From positions 1 to 52,396 of IMG/VR virus record IMGVR_UViG_3300036829_000063: a stretch of 52,396 nucleotides of DNA, one strand, 5' to 3'. Made by a program: the position numbers and the translations under genes. Of this stretch, positions 1 to 28,104 are shown piece after piece. This stretch comes from a virus (taxonomy: Duplodnaviria > Caudoviricetes). The notes under the pieces are model-generated. The model was given only the letters and a program-made list of their open reading frames with translations. It had not been told where the DNA came from and made no database searches. Every line of letters begins with the position of its first letter. Within the stretch, counting starts at the first letter, position 1.

Positions 1-530
1 GCCAGCTCCCGGTCCAGAGGCCGGAACACATCCAGGTCGATCATGTGAGGCACATACAGCGCCCGGGTGTGCCCAGCCGCCTTGATCAGCTCCAGGCCGT
101 GACGAGACATAGCGATCGGGCGGAGCCTCGTCCCCTCCAGGAGAGCCTGATCCGCCACGCCCAGCTCATCCTCCACATCCACCGGCATCCACGCCGCCAC
201 CGGAATCCTGGCCATCAGGCACTCCAGGACCGCGCTCTCTGGCATCACCCACGCATCCATCAGCATCAGGACCAGATCCGCCTGGACACTCTTGGCGTGC
301 TTAGCCATCACATCCGCGCCGTACTCCGCCCGGCCCATCGGGAGAACCGTGATCCCCTCCCACGTCGTAGCCGAGCCCTGGAGCCCGTAGAACGCCCCGA
401 TGACCACCCGGTAACCCAGCTTGGTCAGCTCCCGGGCCAGAGTCGCGCACTGGGTGCCATACCCAGACCCCACCCACGGGGCATTGCTGTGAATGTAGAT
501 GGTCTTGGACTGGCCCTCGGGGCTAGTCAT
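1..530 (-). CDS. Glycosyltransferase (GT-B/GT4-like), N-terminal part, truncated by window edge
   Basis: Not in the ORF track because there is no stop in the window. My translation from ATG 530: MTSPEGQSKTIYIHSNAPWVGSGYGTQCATLARELTKLGYRVVIGAFYGLQG...DLVLMLMDAWV...AAWMPVD...IAMSRHG...LYVPHMIDLDVFRP. The SNAP..GYG.Q, IAMS and YVPH.ID...F.P motifs match phage GT4-type enzymes. The start overlaps the stop of the upstream gene. Confidence 0.8.
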   Translation of the reverse strand, partial: MTSPEGQSKTIYIHSNAPWVGSGYGTQCATLARELTKLGYRVVIGAFYGLQGSATTWEGITVLPMGRAEYGADVMAKHAKSVQADLVLMLMDAWVMPESAVLECLMARIPVAAWMPVDVEDELGVADQALLEGTRLRPIAMSRHGLELIKAAGHTRALYVPHMIDLDVFRPLDREL

Positions 531-945
531 CGTAGGAGAGCTGAATCAGCAGAGGAGTGAGGCTCCCGCCGTCGAACCCGGCCACCGGGGGAGTCTCCAG
601 CCACACCCGGCCACGCTGGTCCAGCCACCCAACCTGGCGCATCCGGATTGGGGCCACCAACTTACTGGCCTCATCCTCCGTGAACGGCCCCGCAACACGG
701 CCCAGCGCCGTGAAGTCAACCGAAGCGCTCAGAGACAGCCCAGTCTCCCAGCACGGCACATCCCCCGCCGTCCTACCGGGAGCCCCATCCTCGGGCGTTG
801 CCTGGTGTTCACTGCGCACCACTTCCCCGCTGTTCTCCTGAGCCCTGGCCGTGGCCTTGGCCAAGCCGCCGTACATCGGCCGCACCAGCGCCGGGTCAGC
901 GTGGGGAAGCTCCGGGCCTGGACGTGGATCATTCTCAGTCGCCAT
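523..945 (-). CDS. Hypothetical protein immediately downstream of the major capsid
   Basis: ATG 945 is preceded by GGAGAGGA. The stop overlaps the glycosyltransferase start. Confidence 0.6.
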   Translation of the reverse strand: MATENDPRPGPELPHADPALVRPMYGGLAKATARAQENSGEVVRSEHQATPEDGAPGRTAGDVPCWETGLSLSASVDFTALGRVAGPFTEDEASKLVAPIRMRQVGWLDQRGRVWLETPPVAGFDGGSLTPLLIQLSYDD

Positions 946-1026
946 GGGTCTATTTCCTCTCCGGAATACCGAACGGGGCCAGACCATCCGGCCCGGCCCC
1001 GCTCAGATTACCGCTACGCGTGGTGG

Positions 1027-4000
1027 TTAGCGGACCACCAGCATCTTGAGCGCCGCCGCCGCCCTGATCATGGAGTTGTTCCTCCACCAGCAGAAGTAGC
1101 CCCGCTGGCCGGTCGGGTAGCCCACACCGGACCCAGCGGTTGCCTGCTGGAAGAGCTGGGGCACAAGCTCCATGTTCATGCCCACCCGGTCCACGATCAA
1201 GAACCCGGTCTTGAAGTCCCCGAAGATCAGGATCTTCTTGCCCGAGGTCGTGGCCGTGTCCATCGTGGACAGCTCACGCGCCGGGTAGCCCACGAGCTGG
1301 GGCGGACGCCCCGCACCCAGGTCCACCCACACGTTGGCCATGGTGCCCGTACCGAACTGGCGCACCAGGTCGTAGATGGCCGAGTCCGTCAGGAACTGGC
1401 CACGGCTCCGGAACCGGGGACCGACCGCGTTCTTGACCGCGTACACATCCGCCACCGTGAACGCCGCCGAGCCCGCCGTGAGCACCTGCTGGGCCGTGCC
1501 GAAAGTCGTGATCAGGCCACCCGCGTGGGGAGCCGTCCCATCACCCAGCACGAACCCGTTTGCGCCGGTTGCCTCCTCCTGGTCCTTGGCGTCCGCCAGG
1601 AGACCCATCATCTCGGCCTGGAGCCCGGCCCAGTCACCCTCGATCTCCACGGAGAACGGGATGAACCCCTGGACACGCTGGGGCTTGATCGTGGGCTGGG
1701 TCAGCGTCGGGCTGTTGTCCGTGTTGACCGCGTTCTCAGACCCACGGCTCACGGTCACCCCGGCCGTGTTCACCAGGTCCAGCTCCTTGGAGCTGATCTG
1801 GCGAACATCCGCCATGTCCCGGAGCGGGTTGATCGACCCATCGGAAGTCAGGGTCACGGACGGGTCCAGCTCGAAAGGAACCGCGAAACCGCCGTCAGCC
1901 CCGGAGTTGGTGCTGGTGCCCAGCGCTCCAAGGATCTGCTGGTCCCGAGGGTTGAGCATGTGCGGGCCGCCCGAGCGGAGCGCCAGGCCGAACACCCGGG
2001 AGTACTCCGGGTTACCCGTGGCCAGGATGCGCTGGGCGATCTCGCCGTCCTTGTCCGGCACCCGGGCCAGGAGCTTGGCCACCCGGCCCTGGACCGCCGC
2101 CGTGTCATCGTGGCCGGGGAACTTGGCCCGCTCGATCGCACGGAGCGCGTTGTCCTTGTAGGCCGCCCCCAGCTCGTCCGAGGAGCGCACGGTCTGGCGG
2201 ATGGCCGCCAGGTCGTAGATCTCGCTGCCACGGTCCCGGATGAACGCCGGGGCACCGTACATCGGGGCCGCACCCGGAGCCGCACCCTGGGCCGCACCCG
2301 CCGAGCCGTCGCGCGGGGCGTCACCAGCGAACCCGCCGGCCGCCGCCATCTGGGCCTGGCGGATACCGGCCAGCGCCGCCGCGTTCTCCATCTCGGTGGC
2401 CCGCGCAGCCACGGCCTGGAGGTTGAGCGCGTGGTCGCGCTGTTCCGCCAGGAGCTTCTCCCACTCGCCCTGCATCTCGGTGGGGAACTGGGATGACGGG
2501 TACTGGGCCGCCATGCTGTTGAGCAGGCCCGCGATCTCCTCCACACGGGACCGGCGGCCCTCAATCGTCCACTCCATGGTGGACCCTCCTCCACTTGTAT
2601 GGGTGGCCACCTGACCACCGTCTGGTGACGCCTGGGCGTGAACCGTGGGCGTCGAACCGGCCGCCGATGCCGCCGGGGGCTCATAATCGGGGTTGATGTC
2701 TTTCATCAGCCCCTCCAGCTTGGATCTGGCCGCCGCCTCATTGGTGAGGCCCTGAGCCTGGGGCAGCCGGGACAACGCCTGGCGGACCCCCTCAGCGTTG
2801 GGCGGGCTGTCCGGGGTGTAGCGGTACGGGAGCGCGTAGGCCGCCTGGGTGTTTGGGTCCTCACCGGACCGGCGGCCCGCCGTGATCCCCGCGTAAAACG
2901 CCGCCTTGTCATCAGCCGCCGCACCGTTGGCCCACGCCTTGGCCGCGTCCCATGCCGAGTTGTCCACGCTGGCCGCCCTCGGGAGCTGGGTGGCCGCGTT
3001 AGCCGGCATGGGGACAGCGCCAGTCCCGGTGGCCGGGTTGACCGGGATTGGCCTGAGCTGAGTCCCGTCCTCAGCCCAGTAATCGTGGTCCGTGTCCGTC
3101 CCGGGCTTGGAGTCGTCCTCCCCATCACCGTCCGGGTCGAACTGCCATGTCCCTCCCCGGTAGACCCAGCCGTTGTTATCCCCGGTGGCCGCCTCGGCCG
3201 CCGCTGTGGCCTCGGAGCTGGTGTTGCCCTGAGGCTGAGGCTCCGGGGCCGTGATCACCGGGCCGGGAGACGGCCGCACCCCAGCCGCTATCTGGTCACG
3301 CTCAGCCCGCCGGACAGCCAGGCTCGTGACGCTGGCCGCCACGGGCTCCGCCCCATCCACCTGGCTCTTGTCCGCCCGGCTGGACACGATGATCCCCGTC
3401 AGGAGACCAGCGTCAAGAGCCTGATCCGCCGTATACCAGGTTTCCGCTTGCATCACGGCCCGCCACTCAGCGTCCGTCCCGCCCACCGTCTGGGCCAGTA
3501 CCCGGGCCATCTGCTGGCTCACGGTCTCCAGCCGGGCCGCCATGGCCGTGAGCGCCGCCGCGTTCCCATCGGTGCCGGACCACGCCTCGTGGAGCATGAC
3601 CTGGCTCAGCTCGGCCCCGTAGCGCTCCTCCCCGGCCATCATCAGGAGAGCCGCCGAGGAGGCCGCCAGGCCGTCGTTATAGGTGTTCACGCCCTCACGC
3701 GCAATGAGCGCGTTAAAGATGGCGTACGCGTCGAACACTTCCCCGCCGGGAGAGTTGATGTGGAGATCCACCGCGCCGTCGATCTGGGCCAGGTCCGAGA
3801 TGAACTCCGAGGCCGTGACGCCCCAAAACCCGATCTCGTCGTACACATCCATCCGGGTGGGGCCGCTGGAGCCCTGAGCCTTGGCGTGGATGCGATACCA
3901 GGAGCGCCCCTCCACGCGCTGATGCCTATCCTCACGGGCCATGGCGTGAATCCTTCCCGGCCGACCGTGGCCGTTAGACGTGGCGTTGACCGCTCGGGCC

Positions 4001-5448
4001 GCCGCCGCTTGCCTCGCGCTCGGGGCCGGGGCATCGCCCGAGCCGCTATCTGGGGTGGTCTTGGCCGCATCGGCCGCCGGATCATCAGCCCCCGGAGTCT
4101 CCAGGTTGGGATCAGGCTCACCAGGCCCAGGAGGCTGGAGCTGGATAGAGGTCAACCCGGTGTGCTTGAGCACGCCCCAGTCGTTGGTCCGGACCGCCTC
4201 GGTAACGGTGTCCGGCTCGTAGCCCTCACGGATCAGCGTGGACATGGTGGTGGCCTCGGCCATCTGGACGTTGGCCCGGTCCTGGGCGTCCTGGCGCATG
4301 AACGGGACACGCATGTCATACCAGAGCGTGGCCTGGGGGCTGGGCTTGGTCAGGAGAGGCTCCAGGCTGGCCGCCGCCTCACCCCACAGATCCACCATCG
4401 TGCCGTCAGAGAACCGCCGCCGCGCGCTGTCAAAGTTGCCCGCGTTGAGCGCTGAGCCCTTGAGGCCCTCGGACATGCCAACCCAGCTCGGGGGAACCCC
4501 GGCCGCTGATGCCATCCTCAGCTCAGCGCTGGCCTGGAGGAGCGCATAGTCCATGTCCTTGAAATTGAGGCCCACCGCCACCGGGTCCGCCCCGCCACCC
4601 AGATACATGGTCTTGTATGCGTTGGCGATCCCGGCGTGCTCCTCCTCCAGCAGCTCTATGAACTGGCGCACCCGGTCAATGTCCTGAGCCGCGTCGAACT
4701 TGATAGCCAGGTTGGGCGTGGCCGCGTTGCGGAAAAACTCATCCTTGTGGTCGATGGCCGCCAGGTCTGCGCTCAGCTCCCGCATCACCGGAGTGATCCA
4801 CGACTGGCCCAGCCAGGAACAGTCCGGGTCCGGGATCGGGGCATAGTGCCCGATCTGCTGGGGAAAGAACCACTGAATCTGGCCGCCCGGCGGGCCGTAG
4901 ATGTAGCCCACCCTCTCGATATCCGCCGCCCACGCCGGATTATCCGGGCTCTCCTGAGATCCCAGGACCACGGTCATCCACTGGGGCTCCAGGACAAAGA
5001 TCTGGTTACCGCGCCGCCGCACGTACGCCTGCCCGGCGCTGGACCCATACCACTCCATGCGCTTGAGGAGGCTCTGGGTCGTGCCACCCGGCCACGGCCG
5101 CTCCAGCACCGCCAGTTCTTTGGACCCGTACAGGTCACCAGGCTGGGAGCCGGACATGTTGGTCCACTGGAAACGGGTCTGGCCGAACACCTGGGAACGG
5201 GCCAGGATCAGGGAGAACACCGTCGACGTGTACTTACCGGCCGACCGCTGATCCCGGACGATCTTCTCACGGTTGGTCTTGTTCATGGTGGTGTTGAGCA
5301 AGGGATAGCCCAACCCGCCATATGTCATCCACTGAGCCCACTGGCCAAAGTCCAGGCTCTCGATCGAAGCCCTCAGACTCTCCCGGGACACCCGGCCAGG
5401 GTCCGCCCGGCGGGCCAGCCTCGCCCTAGTCCGGTCGACCGCGCTCAC
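1027..5448 (-). CDS. Fused portal - ClpP-type (S14) head maturation protease - linker/scaffold - HK97-fold major capsid protein (1473 aa)
   Basis: aa ~1-440 HK97-family portal (FFRNAATPNLAI..., LNFKDMDY...RMASAAGVPPSWVG). aa ~510-690 ClpP (YDEIGFWGVTA, LHINSPGGEVF, DGLAASSA, MLHEAW). aa 958-1473 capsid (coiled delta domain, DGGFAVP, LVGYP, FGDFKTGFLIVDRVGM). No in-frame stop. GTG start has GGAGG upstream. Confidence 0.93.
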   Translation of the reverse strand: MSAVDRTRARLARRADPGRVSRESLRASIESLDFGQWAQWMTYGGLGYPLLNTTMNKTNREKIVRDQRSAGKYTSTVFSLILARSQVFGQTRFQWTNMSGSQPGDLYGSKELAVLERPWPGGTTQSLLKRMEWYGSSAGQAYVRRRGNQIFVLEPQWMTVVLGSQESPDNPAWAADIERVGYIYGPPGGQIQWFFPQQIGHYAPIPDPDCSWLGQSWITPVMRELSADLAAIDHKDEFFRNAATPNLAIKFDAAQDIDRVRQFIELLEEEHAGIANAYKTMYLGGGADPVAVGLNFKDMDYALLQASAELRMASAAGVPPSWVGMSEGLKGSALNAGNFDSARRRFSDGTMVDLWGEAAASLEPLLTKPSPQATLWYDMRVPFMRQDAQDRANVQMAEATTMSTLIREGYEPDTVTEAVRTNDWGVLKHTGLTSIQLQPPGPGEPDPNLETPGADDPAADAAKTTPDSGSGDAPAPSARQAAAARAVNATSNGHGRPGRIHAMAREDRHQRVEGRSWYRIHAKAQGSSGPTRMDVYDEIGFWGVTASEFISDLAQIDGAVDLHINSPGGEVFDAYAIFNALIAREGVNTYNDGLAASSAALLMMAGEERYGAELSQVMLHEAWSGTDGNAAALTAMAARLETVSQQMARVLAQTVGGTDAEWRAVMQAETWYTADQALDAGLLTGIIVSSRADKSQVDGAEPVAASVTSLAVRRAERDQIAAGVRPSPGPVITAPEPQPQGNTSSEATAAAEAATGDNNGWVYRGGTWQFDPDGDGEDDSKPGTDTDHDYWAEDGTQLRPIPVNPATGTGAVPMPANAATQLPRAASVDNSAWDAAKAWANGAAADDKAAFYAGITAGRRSGEDPNTQAAYALPYRYTPDSPPNAEGVRQALSRLPQAQGLTNEAAARSKLEGLMKDINPDYEPPAASAAGSTPTVHAQASPDGGQVATHTSGGGSTMEWTIEGRRSRVEEIAGLLNSMAAQYPSSQFPTEMQGEWEKLLAEQRDHALNLQAVAARATEMENAAALAGIRQAQMAAAGGFAGDAPRDGSAGAAQGAAPGAAPMYGAPAFIRDRGSEIYDLAAIRQTVRSSDELGAAYKDNALRAIERAKFPGHDDTAAVQGRVAKLLARVPDKDGEIAQRILATGNPEYSRVFGLALRSGGPHMLNPRDQQILGALGTSTNSGADGGFAVPFELDPSVTLTSDGSINPLRDMADVRQISSKELDLVNTAGVTVSRGSENAVNTDNSPTLTQPTIKPQRVQGFIPFSVEIEGDWAGLQAEMMGLLADAKDQEEATGANGFVLGDGTAPHAGGLITTFGTAQQVLTAGSAAFTVADVYAVKNAVGPRFRSRGQFLTDSAIYDLVRQFGTGTMANVWVDLGAGRPPQLVGYPARELSTMDTATTSGKKILIFGDFKTGFLIVDRVGMNMELVPQLFQQATAGSGVGYPTGQRGYFCWWRNNSMIRAAAALKMLVVR
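2575..2593 (-). promoter_or_regulatory. Internal RBS and in-frame ATG (Met958) for a stand-alone major capsid protein
   Basis: Minus strand reads GTGGAGGAGGGTCCACC-ATG(2577). 5448-2577=2871, a multiple of 3. The site lies exactly at the start of the capsid region. Confidence 0.8.
3940..3958 (-). promoter_or_regulatory. Internal RBS and in-frame ATG (Met503) at the start of the ClpP domain
   Basis: Minus strand reads GGGAAGGATTCACGCC-ATG(3942). It is in frame with 5448 and just before the ClpP motif SWYRI. Confidence 0.6.
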
Positions 5449-5689
5449 GTGCCCGGATTCCCTCCGCGAAGCCCTCCGCGACAGCCGCGCATATCCAAGC
5501 TATGCACTGCCATCCGAACCGGAGCGTCCTGGCGGAGACGTATCCGAGGCAAAACAACACGTTGGTGATCAGGGCCAGTATGGCCTTACCCGTACCCCGG
5601 GCCACCCGGCCCGGCTGGATCTCACGGGCTCGGGCGTCCACGCGCTCCAGCACGACCGACCGCTCATCACCGGCTGGCCACACTGACAT
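5426..5689 (-). CDS. Small hydrophobic protein between terminase and portal
   Basis: 87 aa with a hydrophobic C-terminal half. It overlaps the portal start. Confidence 0.6.
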   Translation of the reverse strand: MSVWPAGDERSVVLERVDARAREIQPGRVARGTGKAILALITNVLFCLGYVSARTLRFGWQCIAWICAAVAEGFAEGIRARERGRPD

Positions 5690-5766
5690 GGACGGGTCCT
5701 CCCCAAGTGGATCACTGGCTGAGGGCCAGGGTAGCAGCCATATCCCAGCCGGTGGAGTCTGGCGCG

Positions 5767-6117
5767 CTACCCGATGCGCTCCAGCCAGTACCCGCCCACG
5801 CTGGGCAGATAGTCCGTGATCTCATACCGGACCACCAGATTGGTCCCGTTCACCGTCAAGATCCCGCCCACCAGACGGAACCCATCAGGAGCCAGCCCAA
5901 GGTGAGATGGCATCACCGGAGGCTTGATCGTGAACTCAGGCCACCACGCCGGAAACCCCAGGATGTGCCACAGCCGCTCCCCAGAGGTCACGAACTCCAC
6001 CGGAGCCGAGTCGACCACCAGCTCCCCCCACTCCAGCCGCCGCACCACCAGCTCACCCTGAGGGAGATGCTCCAGGTCCACTACCGGCGGGATCTCAGGC
6101 CGGGGCTCACCGCTCAC
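5767..6117 (-). CDS. Hypothetical protein
   Basis: The likely GTG start at 6117 overlaps the TerL stop. Globular-looking sequence. Confidence 0.5.
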   Translation of the reverse strand: MSGEPRPEIPPVVDLEHLPQGELVVRRLEWGELVVDSAPVEFVTSGERLWHILGFPAWWPEFTIKPPVMPSHLGLAPDGFRLVGGILTVNGTNLVVRYEITDYLPSVGGYWLERIG

Positions 6118-7660
6118 GGCCTCCACGCCTACGGGCCGAGGAGATGATGAACGGGGCAGGGAGGGCCGTGGCCTCACCGTGGATGAACGCATACCGGGCC
6201 AGCGTGACCGCATCCATCGGAGTGACGTCGACAGCATCCGGACCCGTCCCCATTCCCCACGCCCACGCGCCCGCCAGTGGCCGCTTGACCGAGGTCTTAG
6301 CCGCTCCGTCCAGCTCGGTCTGGCCGATGTGCCACACCCGCCGGTTATCCAGGTCGTCCACCAGAGCGCCGCACGCCTGGGCGAACTCACGGGAACCTAC
6401 CAGGATCAGCTCCCGCTTGCGGGGCCGTTTCTTGTCCGCGTGGATGCCCTTTAGCGCCAGGTCATCCTCTGAGATCTTCTCCCGGGCACCAGGAGCGATA
6501 GCCACCGCCACGGCCGCGTGACGCTCGGCCAGGTCCGCTATCTGGTCAATGTGGCCGAGCGCTCCCAGTTCCCGCCAGACCAGCTCCACATGGAGGTCCC
6601 CGTCCTCCCGCCGGCCACACACCGCGATGTAGGTAACCGAGCGGTCCGGAGCGATGGCCGCACCGATCCCCAGCGTTCCCGTGAGCCTGCTCTCCACGTC
6701 CGCCTGGCGATCCCAGACCTCAGGAATCAGGCACTTGAGCGTGATGCTGGACTCATCCCGCCAGCCCATCATCTCCCGGCCATACTCGGCCGGTGTCATC
6801 GACGTTCGCAACGTCAGGAACGTCTCCGGGCGTGCCCGGCCGCCGTACTGAGGATTAGCTATCGCTATCATCTCGGGCTTGTCACAGCCACACCCTGGCG
6901 TCCCCCGCAGATGCTTGCAACGCTTCCCCAGGTCGCACGCTATCTCCGGATCAGGAGCCTTGTACTCCATGTAAAACATCGTGGGATCAGACCCCACCCG
7001 GCCCTGGTCTTGCATGTCCCGGAGCCAGTCCGACTCCGCCTTAGGGTGACTAGATCCCGTGAGGATCTGAGGATCTGCCTGGGCCGTGATCGTGGGCATC
7101 AGCGCGCCAACGTGAGCCGGCTTCACCGCGTAACCCTCATCCAGGATCACCCTCGGGGCCGACAGGGACCGGCCGTTGGCTGGCGTCCGCACCCGGAACA
7201 GCATCCGGCCGCCCCAGATCGTCTCCAGCGTCACGCCCGCGTCGTTGGTGCTGATATCCACGGTCTCCGCCGCCAGGTCCGGGCACCCCAGGATTAGCTC
7301 CCTCATGCCCTCCACCATCTCCTCATACGCCATGGAGTTGTGGGCCGAGTAGACCACCAAAGGAATCTGCTCTACGTAGAGCCAGCCAATCGACGCTTGC
7401 TTGAATAGCCCGGTCTTGCCCGTGGACTGGCGTGGCCCGACGATCACCCCGTGACGGACCGCCAGGAGCCCCTCCTCAGTCCGCCCGAAAATCGCATCCA
7501 ACATGAGCTGTTGCTGATCATCCGGAGGGAACCCAGCCTTGAGGCACAATAGAGCCACGTCCCGCCCGGTCGTCAGCACGTACTCCGGAGAGTGCAGATA
7601 CGCCGGGGGCTTGGGCCTCAGAGGCCGCTCCAGATCAAACGGGATCGGATCAGCCAGCAT
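6107..7660 (-). CDS. terL: Terminase large subunit
   Basis: Q-motif (DDQQQL), Walker A GPRQSTGKT, Walker B VILDEGY, coupling motif TGSS, and a C-terminal RNase H-like nuclease (VDVTPMDAVTLA). Located upstream of the portal. Start placed at MLADP after GGAGAGG. Confidence 0.92.
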   Translation of the reverse strand: MLADPIPFDLERPLRPKPPAYLHSPEYVLTTGRDVALLCLKAGFPPDDQQQLMLDAIFGRTEEGLLAVRHGVIVGPRQSTGKTGLFKQASIGWLYVEQIPLVVYSAHNSMAYEEMVEGMRELILGCPDLAAETVDISTNDAGVTLETIWGGRMLFRVRTPANGRSLSAPRVILDEGYAVKPAHVGALMPTITAQADPQILTGSSHPKAESDWLRDMQDQGRVGSDPTMFYMEYKAPDPEIACDLGKRCKHLRGTPGCGCDKPEMIAIANPQYGGRARPETFLTLRTSMTPAEYGREMMGWRDESSITLKCLIPEVWDRQADVESRLTGTLGIGAAIAPDRSVTYIAVCGRREDGDLHVELVWRELGALGHIDQIADLAERHAAVAVAIAPGAREKISEDDLALKGIHADKKRPRKRELILVGSREFAQACGALVDDLDNRRVWHIGQTELDGAAKTSVKRPLAGAWAWGMGTGPDAVDVTPMDAVTLARYAFIHGEATALPAPFIISSARRRGGRER

Positions 7661-7826
7661 CACGCCGCCTCTCCAGCTCAGCGTCCAGGTGGAGCACCGC
7701 ATCCGCCAAGCCCTGACCCTCCCGGCACCACAAGCCGCCGCTCACATGGCAAGGCTGGCACGCCTGCCGGTGGGCCACGAATCGGTCCAGCGCCCGGTCC
7801 CGCTCGGCCAGGAGATCAGGCATCAT
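7650..7826 (-). CDS. Small Cys-containing protein (58 aa, CQPC...C)
   Basis: Manual translation MMPDLLAERDRALDRFVAHRQACQPCHVSGGLWCREG...; it fills the gap and overlaps both neighbours. Confidence 0.5.
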   Translation of the reverse strand: MMPDLLAERDRALDRFVAHRQACQPCHVSGGLWCREGQGLADAVLHLDAELERRRDAG

Positions 7827-8150
7827 CGGGAGCCGCCTCCAACGCGCGCCGCTCCAGCTCCTCGGCCGTCAGGCCCTCCCGGCCACACGCCAGCGCATCC
7901 GCCATCTCGTCATGCATCCACGCGTCGTCGTCATCCCACCGACCCTGGCCGCCGCACCCCGGAGCCCGGCACGCGCTCGGCTGGCTACTCACCGCGCATC
8001 CTCCGCCGGGCCAGCTCATCCCGGGCCAGCTCCGCCCGGCTAGCGTTGAGATATTCCTTGAGCGCCGCCAGCTCCTCGTCCATCGCCCGGTACAACTCCC
8101 GGGACGGAGACCGCACCACCCCCAGCCGGACTAGGAGCCGATAGAACAGG

Positions 8151-8642
8151 TCAGCTAGCACGGGCCGCCGCCAACCGGAAGATCTTGGCCTGAGCCGACC
8201 GCCGCGCCGCCACAGCCGCACTCTCCGTCTCCTCAGACGAGGCCACGGCCGCGCTCACAGCCTCACGATGCGCCTTGATCAAAGACCCCAGCGCCGCGCC
8301 GGACTCGTGGTAGCCATTCTCAATCCGGTACGCCAGCGCCAGCGCTGGCCCCGCCAGCTCCGAATCTTCCACACCCGCCTTGGCCAGCCTCGCCTTGGTG
8401 ATCTCCACCATCGGCCCGATCGTTTCCCGGAAAGCCGACTCCCGGGCCTTGATCTCCTCGGCCACAGGATCGGGAGCTGGAGCCGCCGCCATCTGAGCCA
8501 GCCCAGCCATCCGCCGCTCTTGCTTCCGGTCCAGCGCCGCCTGAGCCCGGCACCCACCAGAGTGATACCGGGCCGACGACCGCTCGGGAGCGAACATCAC
8601 GGAGCACCCGTTACGCGCGCACTCCCGCTCTGGCAACGCCAC
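8151..8642 (-). CDS. Probable terminase small subunit with N-terminal Zn-finger-like segment
   Basis: CARNGC...RYHSGGC N-terminus and a helical ALALAYRIE.G core. Located upstream of TerL near the genome end. Confidence 0.6.
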   Translation of the reverse strand: MALPERECARNGCSVMFAPERSSARYHSGGCRAQAALDRKQERRMAGLAQMAAAPAPDPVAEEIKARESAFRETIGPMVEITKARLAKAGVEDSELAGPALALAYRIENGYHESGAALGSLIKAHREAVSAAVASSEETESAAVAARRSAQAKIFRLAAARAS

Positions 8643-8672
8643 GACGATCCCTCCTCTCCGTGACCAGGATAG

Positions 8673-9797
8673 CTACCGCGCCATCTGGGCAAACAACTTG
8701 TGGATCAGCACCCCATCCCCCTGAGGAGGCCGGGACACGCTCCGGTAATCCATCGTGGCGTTGAGAGCCCCCGGGAGCAACGACCACGCCATCACCCCGA
8801 TGTGGTGAGCCTTGCAGTACGCGAAATAGCGCCGCACCGTCCGGCCCATGTGCTTCCAATGGAAGCTCCCCCGGTAGTTGGCAAACTCAGCGTCCAGCAC
8901 CGGGACGTGATGATCCGCCAGAAGCCCGAAATTCTCATCCCACGTGGCCTTGGTCGGAGCCGCCTGATAGTCCCACGGGGAACCCGGGTGATGGTATGTG
9001 TAGACCAGCGGAGGGAAGCCCTTGGGCTGGCGGAGCATCGGCACCCCGGCCAGCGTCGACGCCCACCGGATGCCCTCCAGCCAGATCGAGTTGGTGGCCC
9101 CGGACGCCCGGATGGTGTCCACGAGGCCCTGGAAAGCCACCCGCCACTGATCCCACGACGCGTGCCGGGGCTCATTAAACAGGTCCAGGACCACGCGCGG
9201 ATTGTCCCGCCAGGCCCGCACCCCGAGCACATGACGCCAAAACGCATACGTGGCCGCCGTGGGCAACGGCTCAGACAGATCCCAGCCCGTGGCCAGCTCC
9301 GTCTGAGCATTGAGCACCATCCGGAGACCCAGCCTCAGGCCGTACCGCATCACCCGCCGGACATAACCCCAGTAGCGCCGGTTAAGATCCCGGCCGCTGG
9401 CTCCCATCGCGCGATCCTGCTGGACCTGGAGACGGATGGTGTCCGCGTGCCACCACACCTTGGCCGCGTAGATCTTCCGCTCCATGGTCGTGACCGTGGT
9501 ATCGCTCACCAGGTACGACTGGAGGTCAGACAGCGTGATCCCGTGCGGGATATCCCCACCAGGCCACTGATAGACGCCCACCGGGCCGCTGAAATGCTGG
9601 CCCTGGTCACTCCGGGCCGCCCCCAGCAGCGGAACCACCACGGCCACGGCCGCGACCAGCGCCACCAGGCCGACCAGCCACCGCCTCCACGGCCGCCGCT
9701 TCCGCCGCTTCCCCCGCTTGATCTGCTCTGCCAGCTCCCACAGCTCGTCCAGCGTGTAGAGCGCCGGCCTCGTGTCCAGGCACGCGTCAACCTCCAT
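8673..9797 (-). CDS. Membrane-anchored/secreted glycoside hydrolase family 5 (cellulase-like TIM barrel)
   Basis: Basic stretch plus hydrophobic helix, then DTIRLQV, LDLFNEP (acid/base Glu), YTYHH, VLDAEF (nucleophile Glu) and GVMAWS. ATG 9797 follows GGAGAGAGGAG. Confidence 0.85.
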   Translation of the reverse strand: MEVDACLDTRPALYTLDELWELAEQIKRGKRRKRRPWRRWLVGLVALVAAVAVVVPLLGAARSDQGQHFSGPVGVYQWPGGDIPHGITLSDLQSYLVSDTTVTTMERKIYAAKVWWHADTIRLQVQQDRAMGASGRDLNRRYWGYVRRVMRYGLRLGLRMVLNAQTELATGWDLSEPLPTAATYAFWRHVLGVRAWRDNPRVVLDLFNEPRHASWDQWRVAFQGLVDTIRASGATNSIWLEGIRWASTLAGVPMLRQPKGFPPLVYTYHHPGSPWDYQAAPTKATWDENFGLLADHHVPVLDAEFANYRGSFHWKHMGRTVRRYFAYCKAHHIGVMAWSLLPGALNATMDYRSVSRPPQGDGVLIHKLFAQMAR

Positions 9798-9819
9798 GGT
9801 GGATCTCCTCTCTCCACCG

Positions 9820-9882
9820 GACACGATACACCACGCGTGGGGAATATCCACCACGCTCTTGCCGTTACTCTCACGCGTGGGT
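9820..9882 (-). promoter_or_regulatory. Promoter of the GH5 gene with CCACGCGTGG palindrome (9831-9840) and a second partial copy (9872-9880)
   Basis: Member of the genome-wide palindrome family. A TATCGT -10-like hexamer follows on the minus strand. Confidence 0.6.
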
Positions 9883-9959
9883 TAATCTGCCTGCTAGAGG
9901 CCCTCCACGGCCCTCCTGGGGATCTCCCACCATCCGGACGCTGATCACAGTCCGTAGCC

Positions 9960-10080
9960 GAAAACGGCCCTCCGTGCTTGCGTAAAAAGTGACCAAACCG
10001 AGCGCGGAAAGAAAGACTGCGGCGGGGTCATAGCCCGCTCACGATCCGTGTCGACCCGCCCCCCTACCCCGTGGTTTGCG
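9960..10080 (-). other. Probable cos/packaging site (physical genome end)
   Basis: Minus strand reads GGGGTAGGGGGCGGGTCGA...TGACCCCGCCGCAGTCTTTCTTTCC...CACTTTTT, a G-run then GACCCC then pyrimidine tract resembling ends of HNH-associated cos phages. It lies between the HNH gene and TerS/TerL. The + strand changes from C/A-rich to G/T-rich here. Confidence 0.6.
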
Positions 10081-10485
10081 TGATCGTGGTTGTGTTTGCG
10101 CTGGTCAGGGTCATGACTGCGGGATGGTGGGGGTCTGGTGGATCTGGTGACCGTGTGCTGGGGGTGTCTGTCCCTCCATGGTTCGGGACTCCTGGGTGGT
10201 CACTGTGTGTGGGGGTGGTGACCTGTGACCTGGTGGGGTGGTTGGTCTGCTGGTTGGTTGGCTTGGGCTTTTCGTTTAGCCGTTTAGGTACTACATGCAG
10301 CGTTGGGGGTGGTGTGGATGGCTGGTCGTTGGTGTGTGCGGGCTGGTGTGGATGTGGATGGGCTGGCTGGCCTTGTAGACAGCACCGAGCCCCAGCGCTC
10401 TGGGCACCGGGGCTCGGGCTGAGACCCATGGCTATGGACTCAGGTCACATGGTAGACGGGTGGGGGTCTATTCGGGGTGGTAGCC

Positions 10486-12117
10486 CTACCGGGTCCGTAT
10501 GTGGGGTGGATGGCTGGCGTGCTTGGGGTGGTGGTCCATCAGCTCCTCACGCCGGTACTCACCCACCCGCTGTGGGTTGTGGCCAGCTACCCGCACCCGT
10601 AGCTGCCACCATGAGGCTGTGGCTGTGGTGATCTCTGCTACCTCGCACCAGTGGGCACCAGGTAGCCCGTATGGGGTGGTGTCCACCAGCACCCGGTCTC
10701 CGGGCTTGATCTCCATGGGCTAGGTGTGGATCTGTTCACGGGTGGTGGTCTCCACCGTGACCTCATGGCCTGGGTTGAGCTGGGCGTGGATCTCCGGGGA
10801 TGTGTCGTCTGGTCTGCCAGCTCCGATTACCAGGCAGGAACAGGCCCACGTCCTGAGTCCCTGGAGTTTGATCCGGGCTATGGGCCGGCCGTCTGCTATG
10901 GGGACTGGGTGGGCCGCTATGGCCGCCGCCGCGCGCTCATCCTCGGCTACCTGCTGGAGATGCTGGGCTGTCCAGGCCAGGCTCCCGATCTCGGGCTCTG
11001 GGGTGGTCATGCTGGGCCAGCGTCCGGAATGACTGGCTCCGTGGACTTGGCCGGGACGTTCTCCGCTTGGGGGTCGTCACTGATGATCTGGACCACCAGC
11101 CAGGTCTTGGCCGCCGCTGTGGCTATGACCGTTCCGTCAGCGTCCATCATGTCCAGACCGCCGTCTGAGTCCTCCTCGTAGGTCTCACCGGGGATGATCA
11201 GGTGGTCCGCTGGGGTGAGCCAGAGCTTGATATGGGTCATTGGGTGGTCCTCATCCGTCGTGTGGTCATGGCCAGTGGGCTGGGTGGTGGTCCGCCACCG
11301 CCGAGCGGGACACCGGGTGGCGGACCCACATGGACCTCTAGCCGCTGGCCGTGGGGGTTGGAGCTGGACGTGACCGGCTGATAATCGCTGGTCAGGTCGT
11401 CCGGGTTGACCTCAAACGGGATGGATGCTGGGCCGAGGCCGGTTTGCTTGGTCTCCACGGGGATGGGCGGGTCACCAGCCGGATACACGAGATAGATCGT
11501 GGAGATGGTGACCTGGACCTTGTGGCCGGTCAGGTCCGCATGGACCTGGGCTGGCGGGGCCTTGTGGTGGCGTCCGTTGCTTGGACAGCCCATGCATTGC
11601 CAGGTGGTGTAGCCGCCCAGATCCATCCGGGTCTCGGTCATCGCTCGGGCCTTGTCCGCCGTGTGCCGGTCTCCGGATGGTCCAGGAACTCATCCGGGCC
11701 GGTTGACAGGCCGCTAGGCCGGTATCCGGCCAAGACCTCGGGACCGCCTGAGCGGATCAGGTGGCCGGTGTTCCGGTGGTCCTTGGCTGTGAGGGCTGAG
11801 CCGGGCCATCCGCCCGCATCGCACTGAGTGCAGATCCACACCTTGCCGACCTCGGCCGTCTGCTGGTCCTTGCGTGTCTGCCAGCGGTAGATCTGGCTGG
11901 TGACGCCCAGCGCCAGGATGGAGACCACGAGGCCGGCCCATGCGGGATGGATGAGCGCTGGCCACGCGATAACGGCCGTGGCCGAGATTGGCGGGTCGAT
12001 GGCGTGGACCGCGTTCCACACAGCCACACAGGTGGCGATGAGGGCCAGCATGGTGAGCCAGCCCGCGAACCACCGCCGGGAACCGGGTTTGGTGGCCTTG
12101 TCTGTCTCGGTGTTCAT
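10486..12117 (-). other. Operon of five small genes (10486-10716, 10720-11010, 11007-11240, 11237-11641, 11638-12117)
   Basis: Abutting or ATGA-overlapping ORFs. Three carry a W-x-C..C...H...GH motif, and the last has two TM helices. Confidence 0.7.
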
Positions 12118-12118
12118 G

Positions 12119-12436
12119 TCAGCTCCCGGAACCGATCGACCCGAGGATGGTCACGAGGATGACGAACGCCGCTGTTCCGGTGCCGATCCATCCCAGGACC
12201 ATCCCGGCCACGGCCAGCCCGGATGGCTTGTATCCGGCCCGGCGGGCTTGCTTGGCGGAGATGTTGCCGAAGATCAGCGCCAGGGCCGAGCCGACCCAGA
12301 ATAGCCAGAGGATGCCGAGCACGAGGGACGCGATGGCGAAGCCGTCCGCGCGCTGGCGTGGCTGGACTGGCTGGGGCTGATAGTAGGCCGGCGGGGTGGG
12401 GTTGGGCGGGTACTCGGGGCGTGGGGTTTCGTACAT
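12119..12436 (-). CDS. DUF4190-like membrane protein
   Basis: Pro/Tyr/Gln-rich N-terminus, then GFAIASLVLGIL...ALIFG...GLAVAGMVLGWIG. ATG follows GGAGAGGAG. Confidence 0.8.
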   Translation of the reverse strand: MYETPRPEYPPNPTPPAYYQPQPVQPRQRADGFAIASLVLGILWLFWVGSALALIFGNISAKQARRAGYKPSGLAVAGMVLGWIGTGTAAFVILVTILGSIGSGS

Positions 12437-12515
12437 GGTGGGCTCCTCTCCAGGATGCGTCTGTGTGACGCTGATCTCACATGGAGAGGCTAGCACCAGG
12501 TCAGGGCCGTATATT

Positions 12516-12562
12516 CCCACGCGTGGGGCCTAGCCTGGGTCGGAGGCCAGGCTAGGCCCCAC
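12516..12562 (-). terminator. Hairpin GGGGCCTAGCCTGG-loop-CCAGGCTAGGCCCC overlapping a CCCACGCGTGGG promoter palindrome
   Basis: Long inverted repeat at ~12525-12560, directly adjacent to the palindrome at 12516-12527. Confidence 0.6.
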
Positions 12563-12950
12563 GTTTGATCCCCGGCCGTGGGGATCTCTAACACCATTAC
12601 GTCGGGCCGCCGTCTGGACGGCCTGGAGGTCATCTTAAACGGCTGAGAGCCGGGCTAGGATCACCAGCCCGGCTCTCTGCGCCATACCTACCCCAACGTG
12701 TCCCACCCGAGGGAACACCACGAGCATACAACAGGTGGTTGGAGGGCCTGGCCGCATGGCTGGCCGGGCCTTTATGCGGGGCGGAGACCGCCGTCCGTGG
12801 AGCTTGAGATACCGGCCACGTCTGGTCCCGTTCCAAGCGTCCCAACCTATGCCCGCTCTTGGAGAGCATCTCCGAGCTTACCAATGCCGAGAGCCGGGCT
12901 GTTCTCATCCAGCCCGGCTCTCGTCCCCTTGGAACAGCAGCGCCGACCCG
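12563..12950 (-). ncRNA. Candidate structured non-coding RNA (~390 nt)
   Basis: Intergenic and dense in helices. It has twin hairpins (12645-12677, 12888-12923), a long-range pair 12830-12837/12928-12935 and a crossing pair 12801-12810/12868-12878. Strand is assumed from the flanking genes. Confidence 0.5.
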
Positions 12951-12978
12951 CTAGGACAGCACCGACCGCACCGTCAGG

Positions 12979-13320
12979 TTACCAGCGCTGGGAGGTCCGG
13001 AGCGGAGCGATCGGGGCCGGTGGGCGTCTGGGGATACGCGCGCCGCCTCGGCCCCAATTACCGCGACGCGCGCCGTCTGCCCGATTACAGGTCCGGTGTT
13101 CGGGGCCACGCCACTGGCCGGTCACGTGGTCGTGGCCCAGATCCCACTCCTGGTCCGGGTCGATGAGCCGGGCCTGGGGATCTCCGGTCTTTCGCACCAG
13201 CTTGCATATGTCCGCGTGACACAGGATGTGGCCGGTGGCCACCGCCGGCTCCCACTTCCGCCGCTCGGCCTGATGGTCAGAGCCGTATCCTCGGGCTGTG
13301 GTGTTGCCGTTCCGGGGCAT
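12979..13320 (-). CDS. HNH-like endonuclease (packaging-associated type)
   Basis: TTARGYGSDHQAER...C....C...WDLGHDH...GPEHRTCNR. TGATG coupling to the upstream gene. Located near the predicted right genome end. Confidence 0.8.
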   Translation of the reverse strand: MPRNGNTTARGYGSDHQAERRKWEPAVATGHILCHADICKLVRKTGDPQARLIDPDQEWDLGHDHVTGQWRGPEHRTCNRADGARRGNWGRGGARIPRRPPAPIAPLRTSQRW

Positions 13321-13604
13321 CAGGAGGAGCCCAGGAACTCGGTGGCCGGTGTCTCCGCCCATGCGATGGAGTCCTGGCCGAAGTCGGCCGCCAGGTCTGC
13401 CAGGCGATTCTTGAGTGCCACGGTGTCCCGGACCTCAGCACAAACACACATGTTCTGATAGGGGGAAGCCGCCGAGGAGTACCACACGCCGTGGAGGGCC
13501 TGGGCTCCCTGATTTACTTCCGCCACCAGACGGAGCTGGAGATTTGACCACGCCGCTTGGGTCAGCTTGTCATCACTGTTTCCCGCGCTGATGTAGACGA
13601 TCAT
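13320..13604 (-). CDS. Hypothetical protein (MIVYISAGNSDDKLTQ...)
   Basis: TGATG-coupled on both sides. Confidence 0.7.
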   Translation of the reverse strand: MIVYISAGNSDDKLTQAAWSNLQLRLVAEVNQGAQALHGVWYSSAASPYQNMCVCAEVRDTVALKNRLADLAADFGQDSIAWAETPATEFLGSS

Positions 13605-13891
13605 CAGTAGCCGACTCCGATCACCGGGCCTGGGATGACCTTGGTCTCCTGGCCGGTCACGACCTTGACCCACAGCTTGTACCGGCCCGCCGTGGTGATG
13701 CCCTGGTCTGCCAGCTTGGTGGCCGCCTCACCGTCGACCCAGCTTCCCAGCACGTAGTCACCATCTGTGGGCTCTCCTGAGCCGTCCAGCAGCATGGCGA
13801 TGTGGACCGGGTAGACCGTCACGTCTGGCACGTCCGGTGGTGGGGTGACTGGGGTCAGGATGAAACCGCCGTCTGAGAGTGGGACTTGCAT
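13604..13891 (-). CDS. Small beta-rich (Ig/BppU-like) protein of the fibre module
   Basis: GRYKLWVKV.....E..VI C-terminus. Follows the giant repeat protein, with GGAG RBS. Confidence 0.55.
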   Translation of the reverse strand: MQVPLSDGGFILTPVTPPPDVPDVTVYPVHIAMLLDGSGEPTDGDYVLGSWVDGEAATKLADQGITTAGRYKLWVKVVTGQETKVIPGPVIGVGY

Positions 13892-13900
13892 GGTGGCTCC

Positions 13901-16900
13901 TCAGCCGGAATGGACAGAGCCGAGGCCCCATCGCTGGCTAGCGTCTCCAGCAGCGTAACCGGAGCTGTGGGCCGGGCCAATGATCCACCGCACGTGGACC
14001 TCACCAAGTCGCCACGGGCCGGGGTTGTATGGCTTGGCCGCCACCACTGTGGGTGAGGCCAGGACCGCCGCGCAAGCGATCACCACGGCCTGGACGAGGG
14101 AGCCGGTGTGCATCGCTGGGATCGAGATGGTGGCTGTGGCCGTGATCACACCGGGGCTGGCCTGAGCGCCGCCGTGGGGGCTGGCTGTCCCGATCGTGGC
14201 TGTGACCGAGACGACCGAGGGCGTGGCCTTGGTGATGGTCGACACCACGGGCGTGGTGATGGTGGCCGATACGGAGATGACAACTGGGTTGGCAACTGCG
14301 CCCGTGTTGGGTGCCGGGTTGCCAACTGTTGCGATCCCCGGCACCACTCCTGGGGTGACTTTGGTCCCGGTGTTGGGTGTGGTCGTCCCGAACGTTGCGA
14401 GAGCCGGCACCACGCCCGGGGTGGCAGTGCTGGCCGCACCCACCACGGCCGCCCCGATGGTGGCCAGGGCTGGCACCACGCCGGGCTTGGCTGTGGAGCT
14501 GGCCTGGATTACCGCCGCCCCGACCGTGGCGACCGAGGCCACCACGCCGGGCTTGGCTGTTTCCCCGGTGCTGGGGGCCGCCGCCCCGATCGTGGCCACG
14601 CTGGACACGACCGCCGGGGCCGGGATGCTGGCTGGCGAGGATGCGCCGATGGTGGCCACAGCCGGGACCACGGCTGGGGACGCGTTCTGATCCACGTAGG
14701 CCGTGGTGGTGAGCCTCAGCCGATCCCAGTAGTAATCCACCGAGGCCACGGCCGCACCCACACCCGGCCGGATGGCCGTGATCGTGCCGCCCGTGTTTTG
14801 GTTGGCCGCGCTGGTGTGGACCTCGGCTGGGGCACCGTCGTTTTTACCCGCGTAGAACCTCAGCTCACCCTGGCCGACGCTGGCGTCCCCGAGGATGAAC
14901 CCGGCTACCCGGAACCACTGGCCAGCGGTCCACGTGCCGGTTAGCTGAGCCATGACGCCAGCCGCCGCGTTAACAAGCTGGACGTTGCCCGCCGTGGTGA
15001 GCTGGATATACCCGGCCAGGGAGCTAGCGCCGGTCACGAACGTGATGACTCTGTGGTTGTGCGCCGGGAACGCTGAGAGCCAGAGGTCGATGGTGAAAAA
15101 CCACAACGGCTGGGTGCCGATGCTGGCCTTGTACTCCCCATAGACCGCCTCTCCCGTGGCGTCCGTGGTGATGTGATAGCTGAGCGTCCCCTCAGCTACC
15201 TGGGTACTGGAATAGGTGAAGGTCCCGCCAGCAGCAATTGGGACCGAATCGAATGCGTCCCCCGACGCGCCGCCACTGTTTCCGGCCGTGACCGTTACCC
15301 CGTTGGTGCCTCCCTCAGCGTTGAGGGAGAGCGCTGTTTTGGTGGCGCTTACCGTGGGAGCGCCGATGGTGGCCACGCCGGGCACCACCGAGGGCGTGAC
15401 CTTGCTCCCGGTATTGGGAGCTGGGCTGGGCACCGAGGCCACACAGGCCACCACGGCCGGTGTGACGGTTTCCCCGGTCTTGACCACCGTGGAGCCGACG
15501 CTGGCCGGGCAGGCAACCACCGGGGGTGTGGCCATGCTCCCGGCCCCGACTGTGGGTGAGCCGATGGTGGCCACACAAGAGATCACGCTGGGCTGGGTGG
15601 TGTTGAACGTGTCCGTCTGGGAGACCTGGGCCACCGCGTTGGTGGCATCCCAGCCTTGGAAGTTGACCGAGATCACCGAGCCGGTGTCCGTGATCGTGAT
15701 CCGGCCGTACTGGCGGGCCTCCCCGCCCGTGTTGTTATACAGGGCTGAGAACGTGGATTGCATCAGGCCGCCGCCCGTATTCAGCAGCGGGGCCGCGCAG
15801 TAGACCGGGAACCCTCCCCACGTGTTCTTAGCGGACGTGGCGTAACCCACCAGGTGGCTGTCACCATGCCAGAGCATCAGGTTTTTGACGGCCGCCCGGT
15901 TGGCGTTGATGTAGCTGATGATGGCCTGGCGCTCAGTGTCGTATGACCACCACTTGTCCGGCCCGTTGCTGATGGTGGGCGTCCCCATCCAAGCCACATC
16001 ACTGATGATGACCTTGAGTGGTTCGGACTGGACCAGCTCCGATTCCAGCCACGCCAACTGGGTGGCCCCGAGCATGGTCTTGGAGCCGTCATCGGTGTTG
16101 CCGCCGGGGCTCCGGTCCGTGTTCCGGATATCCACCATGATGAACCGGACGCGCCCGACCACCCATGATTGGTAGAGGCCGTGGACTGGGGTGTTGACGG
16201 TATCCCCGAGCGTCCCGAACGGGAATACCTGGCGGGCCGCTGCGATGTTGGCCGCCGTATACGCGTTATTGGAGTCCCCGTTGTCCGGGCCGGCCTCGTG
16301 GTCCGAACGGCAGTAGTAGCCCCAGGTGGTCTCCACCATGGCCGCCAGGCCGGGGATGCCAGCTATCTGGCTCTCGTAGACACCACGCTGGGTGTCGGTG
16401 CTGGTGGCCGTGCTCCCCGAGTAATCGAAGTCCCCGGTAAAGATCGTCAGGTCCGGAGCCCATGCCACCAGGTCATTGATGGCCGTGTTTTGGGCTGGGC
16501 TGGTCACATCTTGCTCAGCGACACAGGCCGCCAGGGCCACAGTGAAGCTAGCCGGGCTCCCCGAGGCCGCCAGGGTCTTACAGGAGCCGATGGGGCCGAC
16601 CAGCGTCTCCGCCCCGCCAGTGGGCGTGTCCGCCGCCTGGACGTAGTACCTCGTGGCCGCGCTGAGGCCGCTCACCGCGTGGGTGACGTACCCGTTTGCG
16701 TCTGGGGTCTGGGCGGATACAAAGCTCGGGCTGGTCATGCTCGGGCTGGTGGAGTACGCCAGCCGGACCGAGGTAGCGCCGGACAGTTTGGTGATGACAC
16801 CAAACCCGCTCGGGGTCGGTGCGCCAGCCACAAGCTGGGCCACGGTCCCCGGGAGCGGGACGATCGGGGCCGCCTTGATACCCAGGAGGAGACCAGCGGT

Positions 16901-18466: not shown

Positions 18467-18502
18467 CGCACGCCTCCCCGGAGCCGGTTAGAGCTGGAGA
18501 GA

Positions 18503-19012: not shown

Positions 19013-19016
19013 CGGA

Positions 19017-19665: not shown

Positions 19666-19708
19666 CGGCCGTGGTCGTGGCCGGTGGCGCTCCGTTGGGG
19701 TGATCTAG

Positions 19709-22403: not shown

Positions 22404-22447
22404 CGTGGACTCCTCTCCGTAGATCCCCACGTGTGGTCTGTCTAACG

Positions 22448-27579: not shown

Positions 27580-27623
27580 GGTGTGTGGATCTCCTCTCCA
27601 AGAGACTTAGACGATAGGACGGA

Positions 27624-28010: not shown

Positions 28011-28067
28011 GGACCTCCTGGCAGTGCCGGGCCTCGGTCTGGAGGTCCGGCACTCTCAGCAGGTGAG

Positions 28068-28104
28068 GAGCCCGGCCCGTGAACACCAGGCCGGGCCGGG
28101 CTCC
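28068..28104 (-). terminator. Putative terminator hairpin
   Basis: GAGCCCGGCCCG...CGGGCCGGGCTC just after the stop at 28117. Confidence 0.6.

Follow-up and report, generated by a model that had tools for sequence, protein, structure and literature searches.

How a procapsid acquires one portal ring, and how its protease is dosed, are long-standing questions in both tailed phages and herpesviruses. The locus described here raises them in a covalent form: how might a head be built when portal, protease, and capsid are encoded in one open reading frame (ORF) with one stop codon? We analyzed the virus sequence IMGVR_UViG_3300036829_000063 (Duplodnaviria; Caudoviricetes), an IMG/VR record of 52,396 bases that is used here at its full length and called the window. 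One frame on its minus strand encodes a portal protein, a ClpP-like prohead protease, and an HK97-type major capsid protein. This triple fusion is real, heritable DNA and not an assembly error. The reading that we prefer, with a probability of about 0.6, is that loss of a stop codon turned a two-tier nested head gene into a three-tier one in a single, narrow soil-phage lineage. There are precedents for the fusion of protease with capsid, for nested head genes, and for portals fused to other domains, whereas a portal-protease-capsid frame is new to the literature that was searched and to the phage records listed.

Composition of the head ORF

A first-pass annotation of the sequence had described one uninterrupted frame of 1473 codons holding portal, ClpP protease, and capsid, with two internal in-frame ATG codons that each have their own Shine-Dalgarno (SD) sequence. 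The ORF and the Pfam and PHROGs assignments agree with the former description, and both internal ATG codons, Met503 and Met958, were confirmed at the positions claimed with the SD sequences in front of them. From N to C terminus, the ORF runs through portal, tail, ClpP-like protease, conserved middle module, delta/scaffold region, and HK97-type capsid, with the following features.

1027..5448, minus strand: single head ORF, 1473 codons plus TAA, GTG start, 0 internal stops
5446..5465, minus strand: start 1, the portal start; GGAGGG at 5465-5460, 11-nucleotide spacer, GTG at 5448-5446
4270..5127, minus strand: Phage_portal domain (PF04860), residues 108-393; 76.6 bits, and 80.7 bits in a six-frame search
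3943..4131, minus strand: portal C-terminal tail rich in proline, alanine, and aspartate (P/A/D-rich), residues 440-502; unfused relatives have the same tail
3940..3957, minus strand: start 2; GGAAGGA at 3957-3951, 8-nucleotide spacer, ATG of Met503 at 3942-3940
3385..3777, minus strand: ClpP-like prohead protease domain (PF00574), residues 558-688; 81.5 bits
2599..3171, minus strand: conserved middle module, residues ~760-950, with acidic DPDGDGxDDS and YALP...L motifs
2575..2592, minus strand: start 3; GGAGGAGG at 2592-2585, 7-nucleotide spacer, ATG of Met958 at 2577-2575
1894..2577, minus strand: delta/scaffold-like region, residues 958-1185, with homology to the N-terminal portion of capsids that stand alone (PDB 9lw6; Gordonia phage Eyre gp6)
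1042..1893, minus strand: HK97-type major capsid domain (PF05065), residues 1186-1469; 91.8 bits

These domain scores compare with Pfam cut-offs of 39.1 bits for Phage_portal, 20.2 bits for CLP_protease, and 24.2 bits for Phage_capsid, and the PHROGs assignments are consistent with Pfam for all three. A long open frame is weak evidence at the GC content of 65-70% found along the entire record, where antisense ORFs of 665 and 605 amino acids overlie the head gene; homology and comparative tests therefore carry the case for fusion.

The portal part in full covers residues 1 to ~439, and the portal of PDB entry 9lw9 aligns to residues 71-456 (E 1.8e-85). It lies next to the terminase, but no stop codon parts it from the next gene, and it is thus not encoded as a free-standing subunit. 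The first 40 residues read from the GTG at 5448 are homologous to the N termini of unfused portals (P0022, P0024, and P0025), which makes this codon a better candidate for the portal start than Met41, where the gene calls of the record's own protein (P0300, 1433 amino acids) and of a second fused protein, P0002, begin (the stretch in question is window 5326-5448). At the other end of the portal, the last ~9 codons of the tail (HGRPGRIHA) stand where the closest unfused portals have '...KGGH-stop'.

The ClpP-like domain is assigned to the prohead proteases by sequence membership, and its activity on capsid or scaffold precursors is a prediction. The serine of the 'AAS' motif that had been singled out earlier is Ser597; in alignments with ClpP1 chains it falls on their AAS motif and His620 on their MHQ motif, and both positions are invariant in 7/7 aligned sequences. 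We take these two to be the catalytic residues. The third triad position is variable, with Glu in the window protein and Thr in its relative P0005.

The first-pass annotation had ClpP cutting linkers rich in P/A/D. The portal tail has this composition, although it is not special to the fusion, being carried by unfused portals as well. The stretch from the protease to Met958, in contrast, is more than a linker, as it contains the conserved module of ~190 residues that is common to ClpP-type protease-capsid relatives, between protease and delta region. Neither Pfam at E<=5 nor PHROGs at E<=0.1 gave a match for residues 700-957 or for residues 958-1185, and a protein atlas returned scores of only 0.83-0.84 for the middle module, beneath the meaningful level. 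The capsid end is clear beyond its Pfam domain, with the capsid protein of PDB entry 9lw6 matching residues 985-1470 (E 6.5e-56).

The portal/protease joint and its distribution

To establish whether the joint between portal and protease is present in DNA other than the record itself, assembled contigs (not raw reads) from four runs were aligned to the ORF. Contigs from run X1, which may be the source sample, are identical over this stretch. Run X2, from another study, has a 1178-nucleotide contig that spans 2897-4074 and crosses the joint at 3942 with 5 substitutions and 0 gaps. Run X4, from a third study, has a 65,308-nucleotide contig over the whole ORF that differs by 241 substitutions in ~4.2 kilobases (kb), a difference of ~5-7%, in addition to two diverged segments. 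Its indels are all frame-preserving (+3 at 4063, which falls inside the joint region; +6 at 3199; 76->82; 126->135; and a -1/+1 pair 6 nucleotides apart), and P0002 (1441 amino acids), which is attributed to this contig, is open through all three domains. At the level of contigs, the portal/protease joint, for which the first-pass annotation had asked for read support, is thus crossed without a gap, and the frame is kept in X4. The 90%-identity cluster to which the protein belongs has five members from Joint Genome Institute (JGI) and Logan assemblies, including four full-length fused proteins from different contigs. These represent three distinct fused variants, namely the window's own (P0300/P0302), P0002, and P0301 (1436 amino acids, from another contig), at pairwise identities of 93.7-99%.

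The variants also bear on whether the fused gene is maintained. Across window positions 3356-5448, X4 and the window differ at ~103 nucleotides but at only 23 of 658 amino acids (residues 41-698), distributed as 15/399 in the portal core, 5/63 in the tail, and 3/196 in the protease. Because most nucleotide changes are silent, portal and protease have remained under purifying selection while fused.

Two rival explanations concern the DNA itself. One takes the joint for an error of assembly or sequencing; in its favor, this is a metagenomic contig compared with other contigs and not with reads. We find it hardly credible, given that a contig from a different study, and diverged contigs from yet another, run through this joint gap-free, and given a cluster whose full-length fused members come from different contigs and from both JGI and Logan assemblies. 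The other is a defective or decaying phage, in which the lost stop codon would be a lesion in a nonviable or cryptic element that persists with its host. The very narrow distribution of the fusion would fit such an element, as would the facts that the record is incomplete, with tail genes outside the window, and that the element is uncultured. However, three diverged variants hold a frame of 4.4 kb with frame-preserving indels only, amino-acid change in portal and protease is far below nucleotide change, the ORF occurs in soil metagenome runs that belong to several studies and date from 2020 and 2025, and a tyrosine or serine integrase was not found in the 52-kb record. A defective phage is, in our judgment, quite improbable.

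Homologs with the same fusion do exist, in the form of the three variants of this one cluster, and none was found among other relatives. P0002 is the only protein with all three domains among 20 homologs of 810-2578 amino acids; the other 19 comprise 14 with PF00574 and PF05065 (ClpP-type), 4 with PF04586 and PF05065 (HK97-type protease), and 1 long portal. It is again the only triple fusion among 17 portal relatives longer than 879 amino acids, the others having inteins, a different domain at the C terminus, or nothing more that Pfam recognizes. No further triple fusion was identified in the best 150 of 21,372 matches in a library of 1.84 billion representatives; a Pfam scan of seven long matches (six of those 150 and P0021) gave five intein-bearing portals, one protease-capsid protein, and, for P0021, the portal domain only. 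Among annotated phage records, 0 of the 1007 that match have 80% or more of the query covered at a single place, and a separate portal is present in all 30 that were listed. Scans of viral and metagenome contigs returned no DNA relative above ~60% identity, and a scan of genome contigs returned no relative. Where fetched loci (at most 60% identity) match both parts, the portal frame differs from the protease frame in 11/11, three of these 11 rows being duplicates (L004 is the same as L022, L002 is the same as L028 wherever the two were read, and L003, whose figures are identical, may be a copy). For instance, the portal stop and the protease start of L020 overlap as ATGA. Cultured relatives have separate genes as well, three in Gordonia phage Eyre and two in Rhodococcus phages Shagrat and REQ1.

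The closest portals are all free-standing: P0022 (527 amino acids) at 84-88% identity, P0023 (482 amino acids) at 80-85%, and P0024 (503 amino acids) at 75-76%. All three share the P/A/D-rich tail and terminate in '...TSNGK-x-(x)-H stop', where the window reads '...TSNGHGRPGRIHA' and then Met503. P0023 and P0024 match the protease-capsid proteins P0004 and P0005 in the length of their longest contigs and are probably on the same contigs as these. Because all other relatives, the closest included, keep a separate portal gene, the fused state is derived, young, and rare and not a conserved design; among all relatives seen, a single 90%-identity cluster has it. The relatives suggest a series from three genes to two genes to one ORF, for the last step of which a minor alteration where the portal gene ends would have sufficed. 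The fused genome and its close two-gene relatives form a matched natural pair for asking whether a tether between portal and capsid helps, harms, or does nothing.

Separately, one of the more distant loci (L004, the same as L022) has an extra ORF at 3990-4450, between the portal gene and the protease-capsid gene. It is rich in Cys and His and, by eye, looks like a homing endonuclease of the HNH type. Because of this extra ORF, the portal/protease joint appears to be an insertion site in other lineages.

Translation of the frame

The residue aligned to Met503 is the N terminus in four of five aligned unfused homologs (P0003, P0005, P0011, and P0014), the fifth (P0004) starting later. By this agreement, Met503 is the old start of the protease-capsid gene, now within a longer frame. 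The fifth homolog deserves a remark of its own: P0004, a relative at 83-85% identity, has its called start at a Met within the protease domain that aligns to residue 588, and its first ~85 residues are absent, which could mean that the frame is shifted, that the gene is split, or that the call itself is an artefact.

Several signals converge on Met958. Ranked by anti-SD pairing among the 99 in-frame ATG, GTG, and TTG codons, Met958 is first (-12.5 kcal/mol), the initial GTG third (-10.0), and Met503 fifth (-9.6), and the site at Met958 has the strongest anti-SD pairing over all 1473 codon positions. GGA is the rarest glycine codon of the gene (6/147), and three of its six occurrences sit in the two internal SD sites, at residues 498, 953, and 954. 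Among protease-capsid relatives, a T[IV]E[GA]RR motif heads the delta-like region in 17 of 28, and a Met stands 3-9 residues before the motif in all 17; the remaining 11 are without the motif and were left unscored for Met. The linker around this conserved Met is otherwise variable, and the Met is mostly preceded by Glu, Gly, Lys, or Arg, whose codons can spell an SD sequence. At the DNA level, an in-frame ATG with an SD-like string is found at the start of the delta-like region in 4/4 other loci (L002, the same as L028; L005; Shagrat; and REQ1), and these four ATG codons rank second or third among the start-type codons; three of the loci, L005, Shagrat, and REQ1, have a non-ClpP protease. Further, the free-standing capsids of PDB entry 9lw6 (543 amino acids) and Eyre gp6 (540 amino acids) begin ~30-36 residues from the point homologous to Met958. 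An in-frame internal start with its own ribosome-binding site is therefore present at a domain boundary and conserved in relatives, and an internal capsid start at Met958 is likely. We lean, with somewhat more assurance than an even bet would warrant, to the wider view that every 'protease-capsid fusion' gene of actinophages is in truth a nested gene, within which a start for the capsid protein is conserved.

From these elements, the following course of events can be proposed. The portal stop codon would have been lost, so that the frame continues through the portal's own disordered tail and on to the start codon of the gene behind it. In this phage family, that gene is already a fusion of protease, middle module, delta/scaffold region, and capsid, and the old ribosome-binding sites and starts survive inside the new frame. 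The ORF would then be read as three proteins with a common C terminus. Initiation at GTG 5448 would give a 1473-amino-acid chain, the sole source of portal in the record; a six-frame search of the record finds one portal and one capsid only, and every portal subunit would be born as this chain because no termination is possible before 1027. Initiation at Met503 would give a 971-amino-acid carrier that takes the protease into the procapsid by its capsid end, and initiation at Met958 would supply, in bulk, a 516-amino-acid capsid subunit with its delta domain. During maturation, cleavage of the linkers by the ClpP-like protease within the procapsid would release the portal and the mature capsid protein. 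A portal's C-terminal region points into the capsid, and the inside of the procapsid is also where delta domains and proteases reside; a C-terminal tether is thus topologically possible. Support for this view comes from the many portal relatives that carry other domains at their C terminus. Whether the tether is useful or merely tolerated, our reading accommodates either.

How far does the evidence reach along this course? Graded internal initiation, as the first-pass annotation had proposed it, is partly supported: the starts and their SD sequences are kept, Met503 is the gene start of relatives, and the internal Met recurs family-wide. Because Met503 coincides with the relatives' start and a Met with an SD sequence recurs before the delta/scaffold region, graded nested initiation is the most economical reading. 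The use of the starts, their relative strengths, the 155-kilodalton form, the tethering of portal and protease to the shell, and the proteolytic release are inferred. Several points weigh against the stop-loss reading. Use of the starts is backed by sequence signals and comparison, and no RNA dataset is among the runs listed as carrying the ORF. Folding in 60-nucleotide segments at the three starts is unremarkable (the fractions of positions that are equally or more weakly folded are 0.22, 0.36, and 0.54), and the Gly, Glu, and Arg codons of the linkers partly force SD-like strings. The record is a 77%-complete fragment, and a second portal gene elsewhere is possible. The fusion is limited to one 90%-identity cluster and could be short-lived. 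Finally, the joint was followed in contigs and not in raw reads, and only one of the five substitutions in X2 is listed, so that a stop codon made by substitution there is possible.

Two other accounts of translation compete with graded nested initiation. The stronger of them has two tiers only, with starts at the portal GTG and at Met503, while Met958 is no start and all capsid is freed from precursors by the protease. Its case draws on the annotation of the fusion as one protein in cultured phages, in the accessible parts of PMC5513430 and of the preprint 10.1101/2020.01.10.891226 (Giantsbane), on the ability of a linker rich in Gly, Glu, and Arg to mimic SD strings through its codons, and on the average folding at Met958. 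It leaves unexplained, however, why a Met is kept before the delta motif in every motif-bearing relative despite a poorly conserved linker, why the SD sequence of Met958 is the strongest in the ORF and built with rare GGA codons, why ATG and SD recur in all four other DNA loci, some of them with a different protease family, and why related free-standing capsid genes begin near this very point. We consider it unlikely. A different account, which strikes us as very improbable, holds that the long form is not made at all, with a programmed frameshift or drop-off before Met503 giving a normal, separate portal. Stops in the -1 frame at residues 443-507 would indeed terminate a shifted portal not far beyond the folded region, but the tail is in frame and conserved at the protein level between variants (5 differences in 63 residues and a 3-nucleotide indel). 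As to a programmed frameshift that frees the portal, residues 380-520 have no canonical X_XXY_YYZ slippery heptamer, and this candidate was rejected.

A more ambitious interpretation, doubtful in our estimate, is that the portal-protease-capsid polyprotein serves as a built-in nucleation complex. Each of the twelve portal subunits would bear one protease and one capsid protein on a flexible tail inside the future shell; the portal ring would seed the shell, ensure that each particle has a single portal vertex and a set amount of protease, and be released by its own protease. Were this true, the phage would offer an experiment of nature on the way in which portal incorporation is secured in tailed phages. 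If the fusion is instead a tolerated accident, head assembly must be robust to covalent linkage of its main parts. If the widespread 'major capsid and protease fusion' genes are indeed nested around an internal start for the capsid, as the comparison suggests, their annotation would change, and it would become clear how such phages have hundreds of capsid subunits but few proteases.

Genome context and known systems

The record and the features that neighbor the head ORF are as follows.

1..52,396: the whole IMG/VR virus record, equal to the window; linear class, CheckV completeness estimate 77%
6107..7702, minus strand: terminase large subunit, upstream of the head ORF
5426..5689, minus strand: small ORF of 87 codons that separates terminase from portal; phages Shagrat, REQ1, and Eyre have one here too

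Other phage genes in the record encode a DnaB-like helicase, a YqaJ-like exonuclease, and RecT. The best organism-named portal matches are prophage proteins of Streptomyces, Actinacidiphila, and Prauserella (52-57% identity); because these are actinobacterial prophages and the runs come from soil, the source of the record is an uncultured soil actinobacteriophage. Three further ORFs on the minus strand are of separate interest. The sole family match of a 1521-codon ORF at 13901-18466 is a partial one to PhoD-like phosphatase (residues 758-872, E 1.2e-9), and a cellulase-like glycosyl hydrolase of family 5 (8673-9854, upstream of the terminase) and a peptidase-like ORF of the papain family, C1 (29852-30934), are unusual candidates for phage cargo or lysis functions.

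That no characterized triple fusion is known, as had been stated at the outset, is in line with a phrase search in which no portal-protease(-capsid) fusion was found described in the open literature, subscription papers and supplements being outside its scope. A literature search for papers citing PDB entries 9lw6-9lw9 found none. The part of the ORF from residue 503 to 1473, on the other hand, has well-known counterparts. In the accessible parts of PMC5513430 and 10.1101/2020.01.10.891226, an actinophage 'major capsid and protease fusion' is reported as common to clusters BI, DJ, and CC, and by homology residues 503-1473 of the window protein correspond to it. The likeness extends to protease, delta/scaffold region, and HK97-type capsid in one ORF after the portal, an arrangement shared by homologs P0003-P0016. 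Unlike the cultured phages with this fusion, however, the window has its portal in frame, whereas the portal gene of Shagrat overlaps the next by 4 nucleotides and that of REQ1 is separated from it by a gap of 30. No internal capsid start is mentioned for these fusions in the same accessible parts of the two sources, and a literature search for one found none.

Gordonia phage Eyre (gp4 portal, gp5 protease, gp6 capsid) has the same order of functions, with homologous portal and capsid and 31% identity to gp6. Its genes are separate, though, and gp5 (L042 2140-3090) is without similarity to the ClpP-like protease of the window (2578-3942). With Eyre, L005, Shagrat, and REQ1 all lacking the ClpP type, the protease module has been exchanged in a head cassette that is otherwise conserved.

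Attachments to the portal C terminus have precedents as well. The portal-MuF fusion of Arthrobacter cluster AK, as far as it is described in the accessible part of PMC5513430, indicates that the portal C terminus tolerates attached passengers, as it does in the window. Extra Pfam domains also occur in portal relatives of ~650-1080 amino acids (P0054, P0062, P0064, P0069, P0074, P0084, P0072, P0078, P0134, P0292, and P0294), among them 2'-5' RNA ligase/2H phosphoesterase (PF13563, in six of 120 listed), NUDIX (PF00293), ADP-ribosyltransferase (PF03496), zeta-toxin/AAA kinase-like (PF06414/PF13671), and PI3/PI4-kinase (PF00454) domains; these attached enzymes look like capsid-internal cargo. Other portal relatives, of 820-1896 amino acids, are interrupted by LAGLIDADG/Hint (intein) sequences, with up to three LAGLIDADG stretches (P0073, P0143, P0144, P0145, P0147, and P0149). 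Unlike portal-MuF or portal-enzyme fusions, the window's passenger is the downstream assembly gene, protease and capsid together, and no accessory enzyme.

The closest parallel for the proposed mode of expression is offered by nested head genes, such as C/Nu3 of lambda and UL26/UL26.5 of herpes simplex virus 1 (HSV-1). In HFTV1, gp17 and gp17.5 are nested protease/scaffold genes with an in-frame internal start, for which lambda and HSV-1 are cited alongside, and in such genes a rare long form holds the protease while an abundant short form builds the shell (10.64898/2026.09.13.751334, accessible part). The window resembles HFTV1, lambda, and HSV-1 in that C-coterminal proteins would arise from in-frame internal starts, which in its case are known from sequence. 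It differs from them in that its predicted short form is a capsid protein with a delta domain and no separate scaffold, and in that it would have three tiers where they have two.

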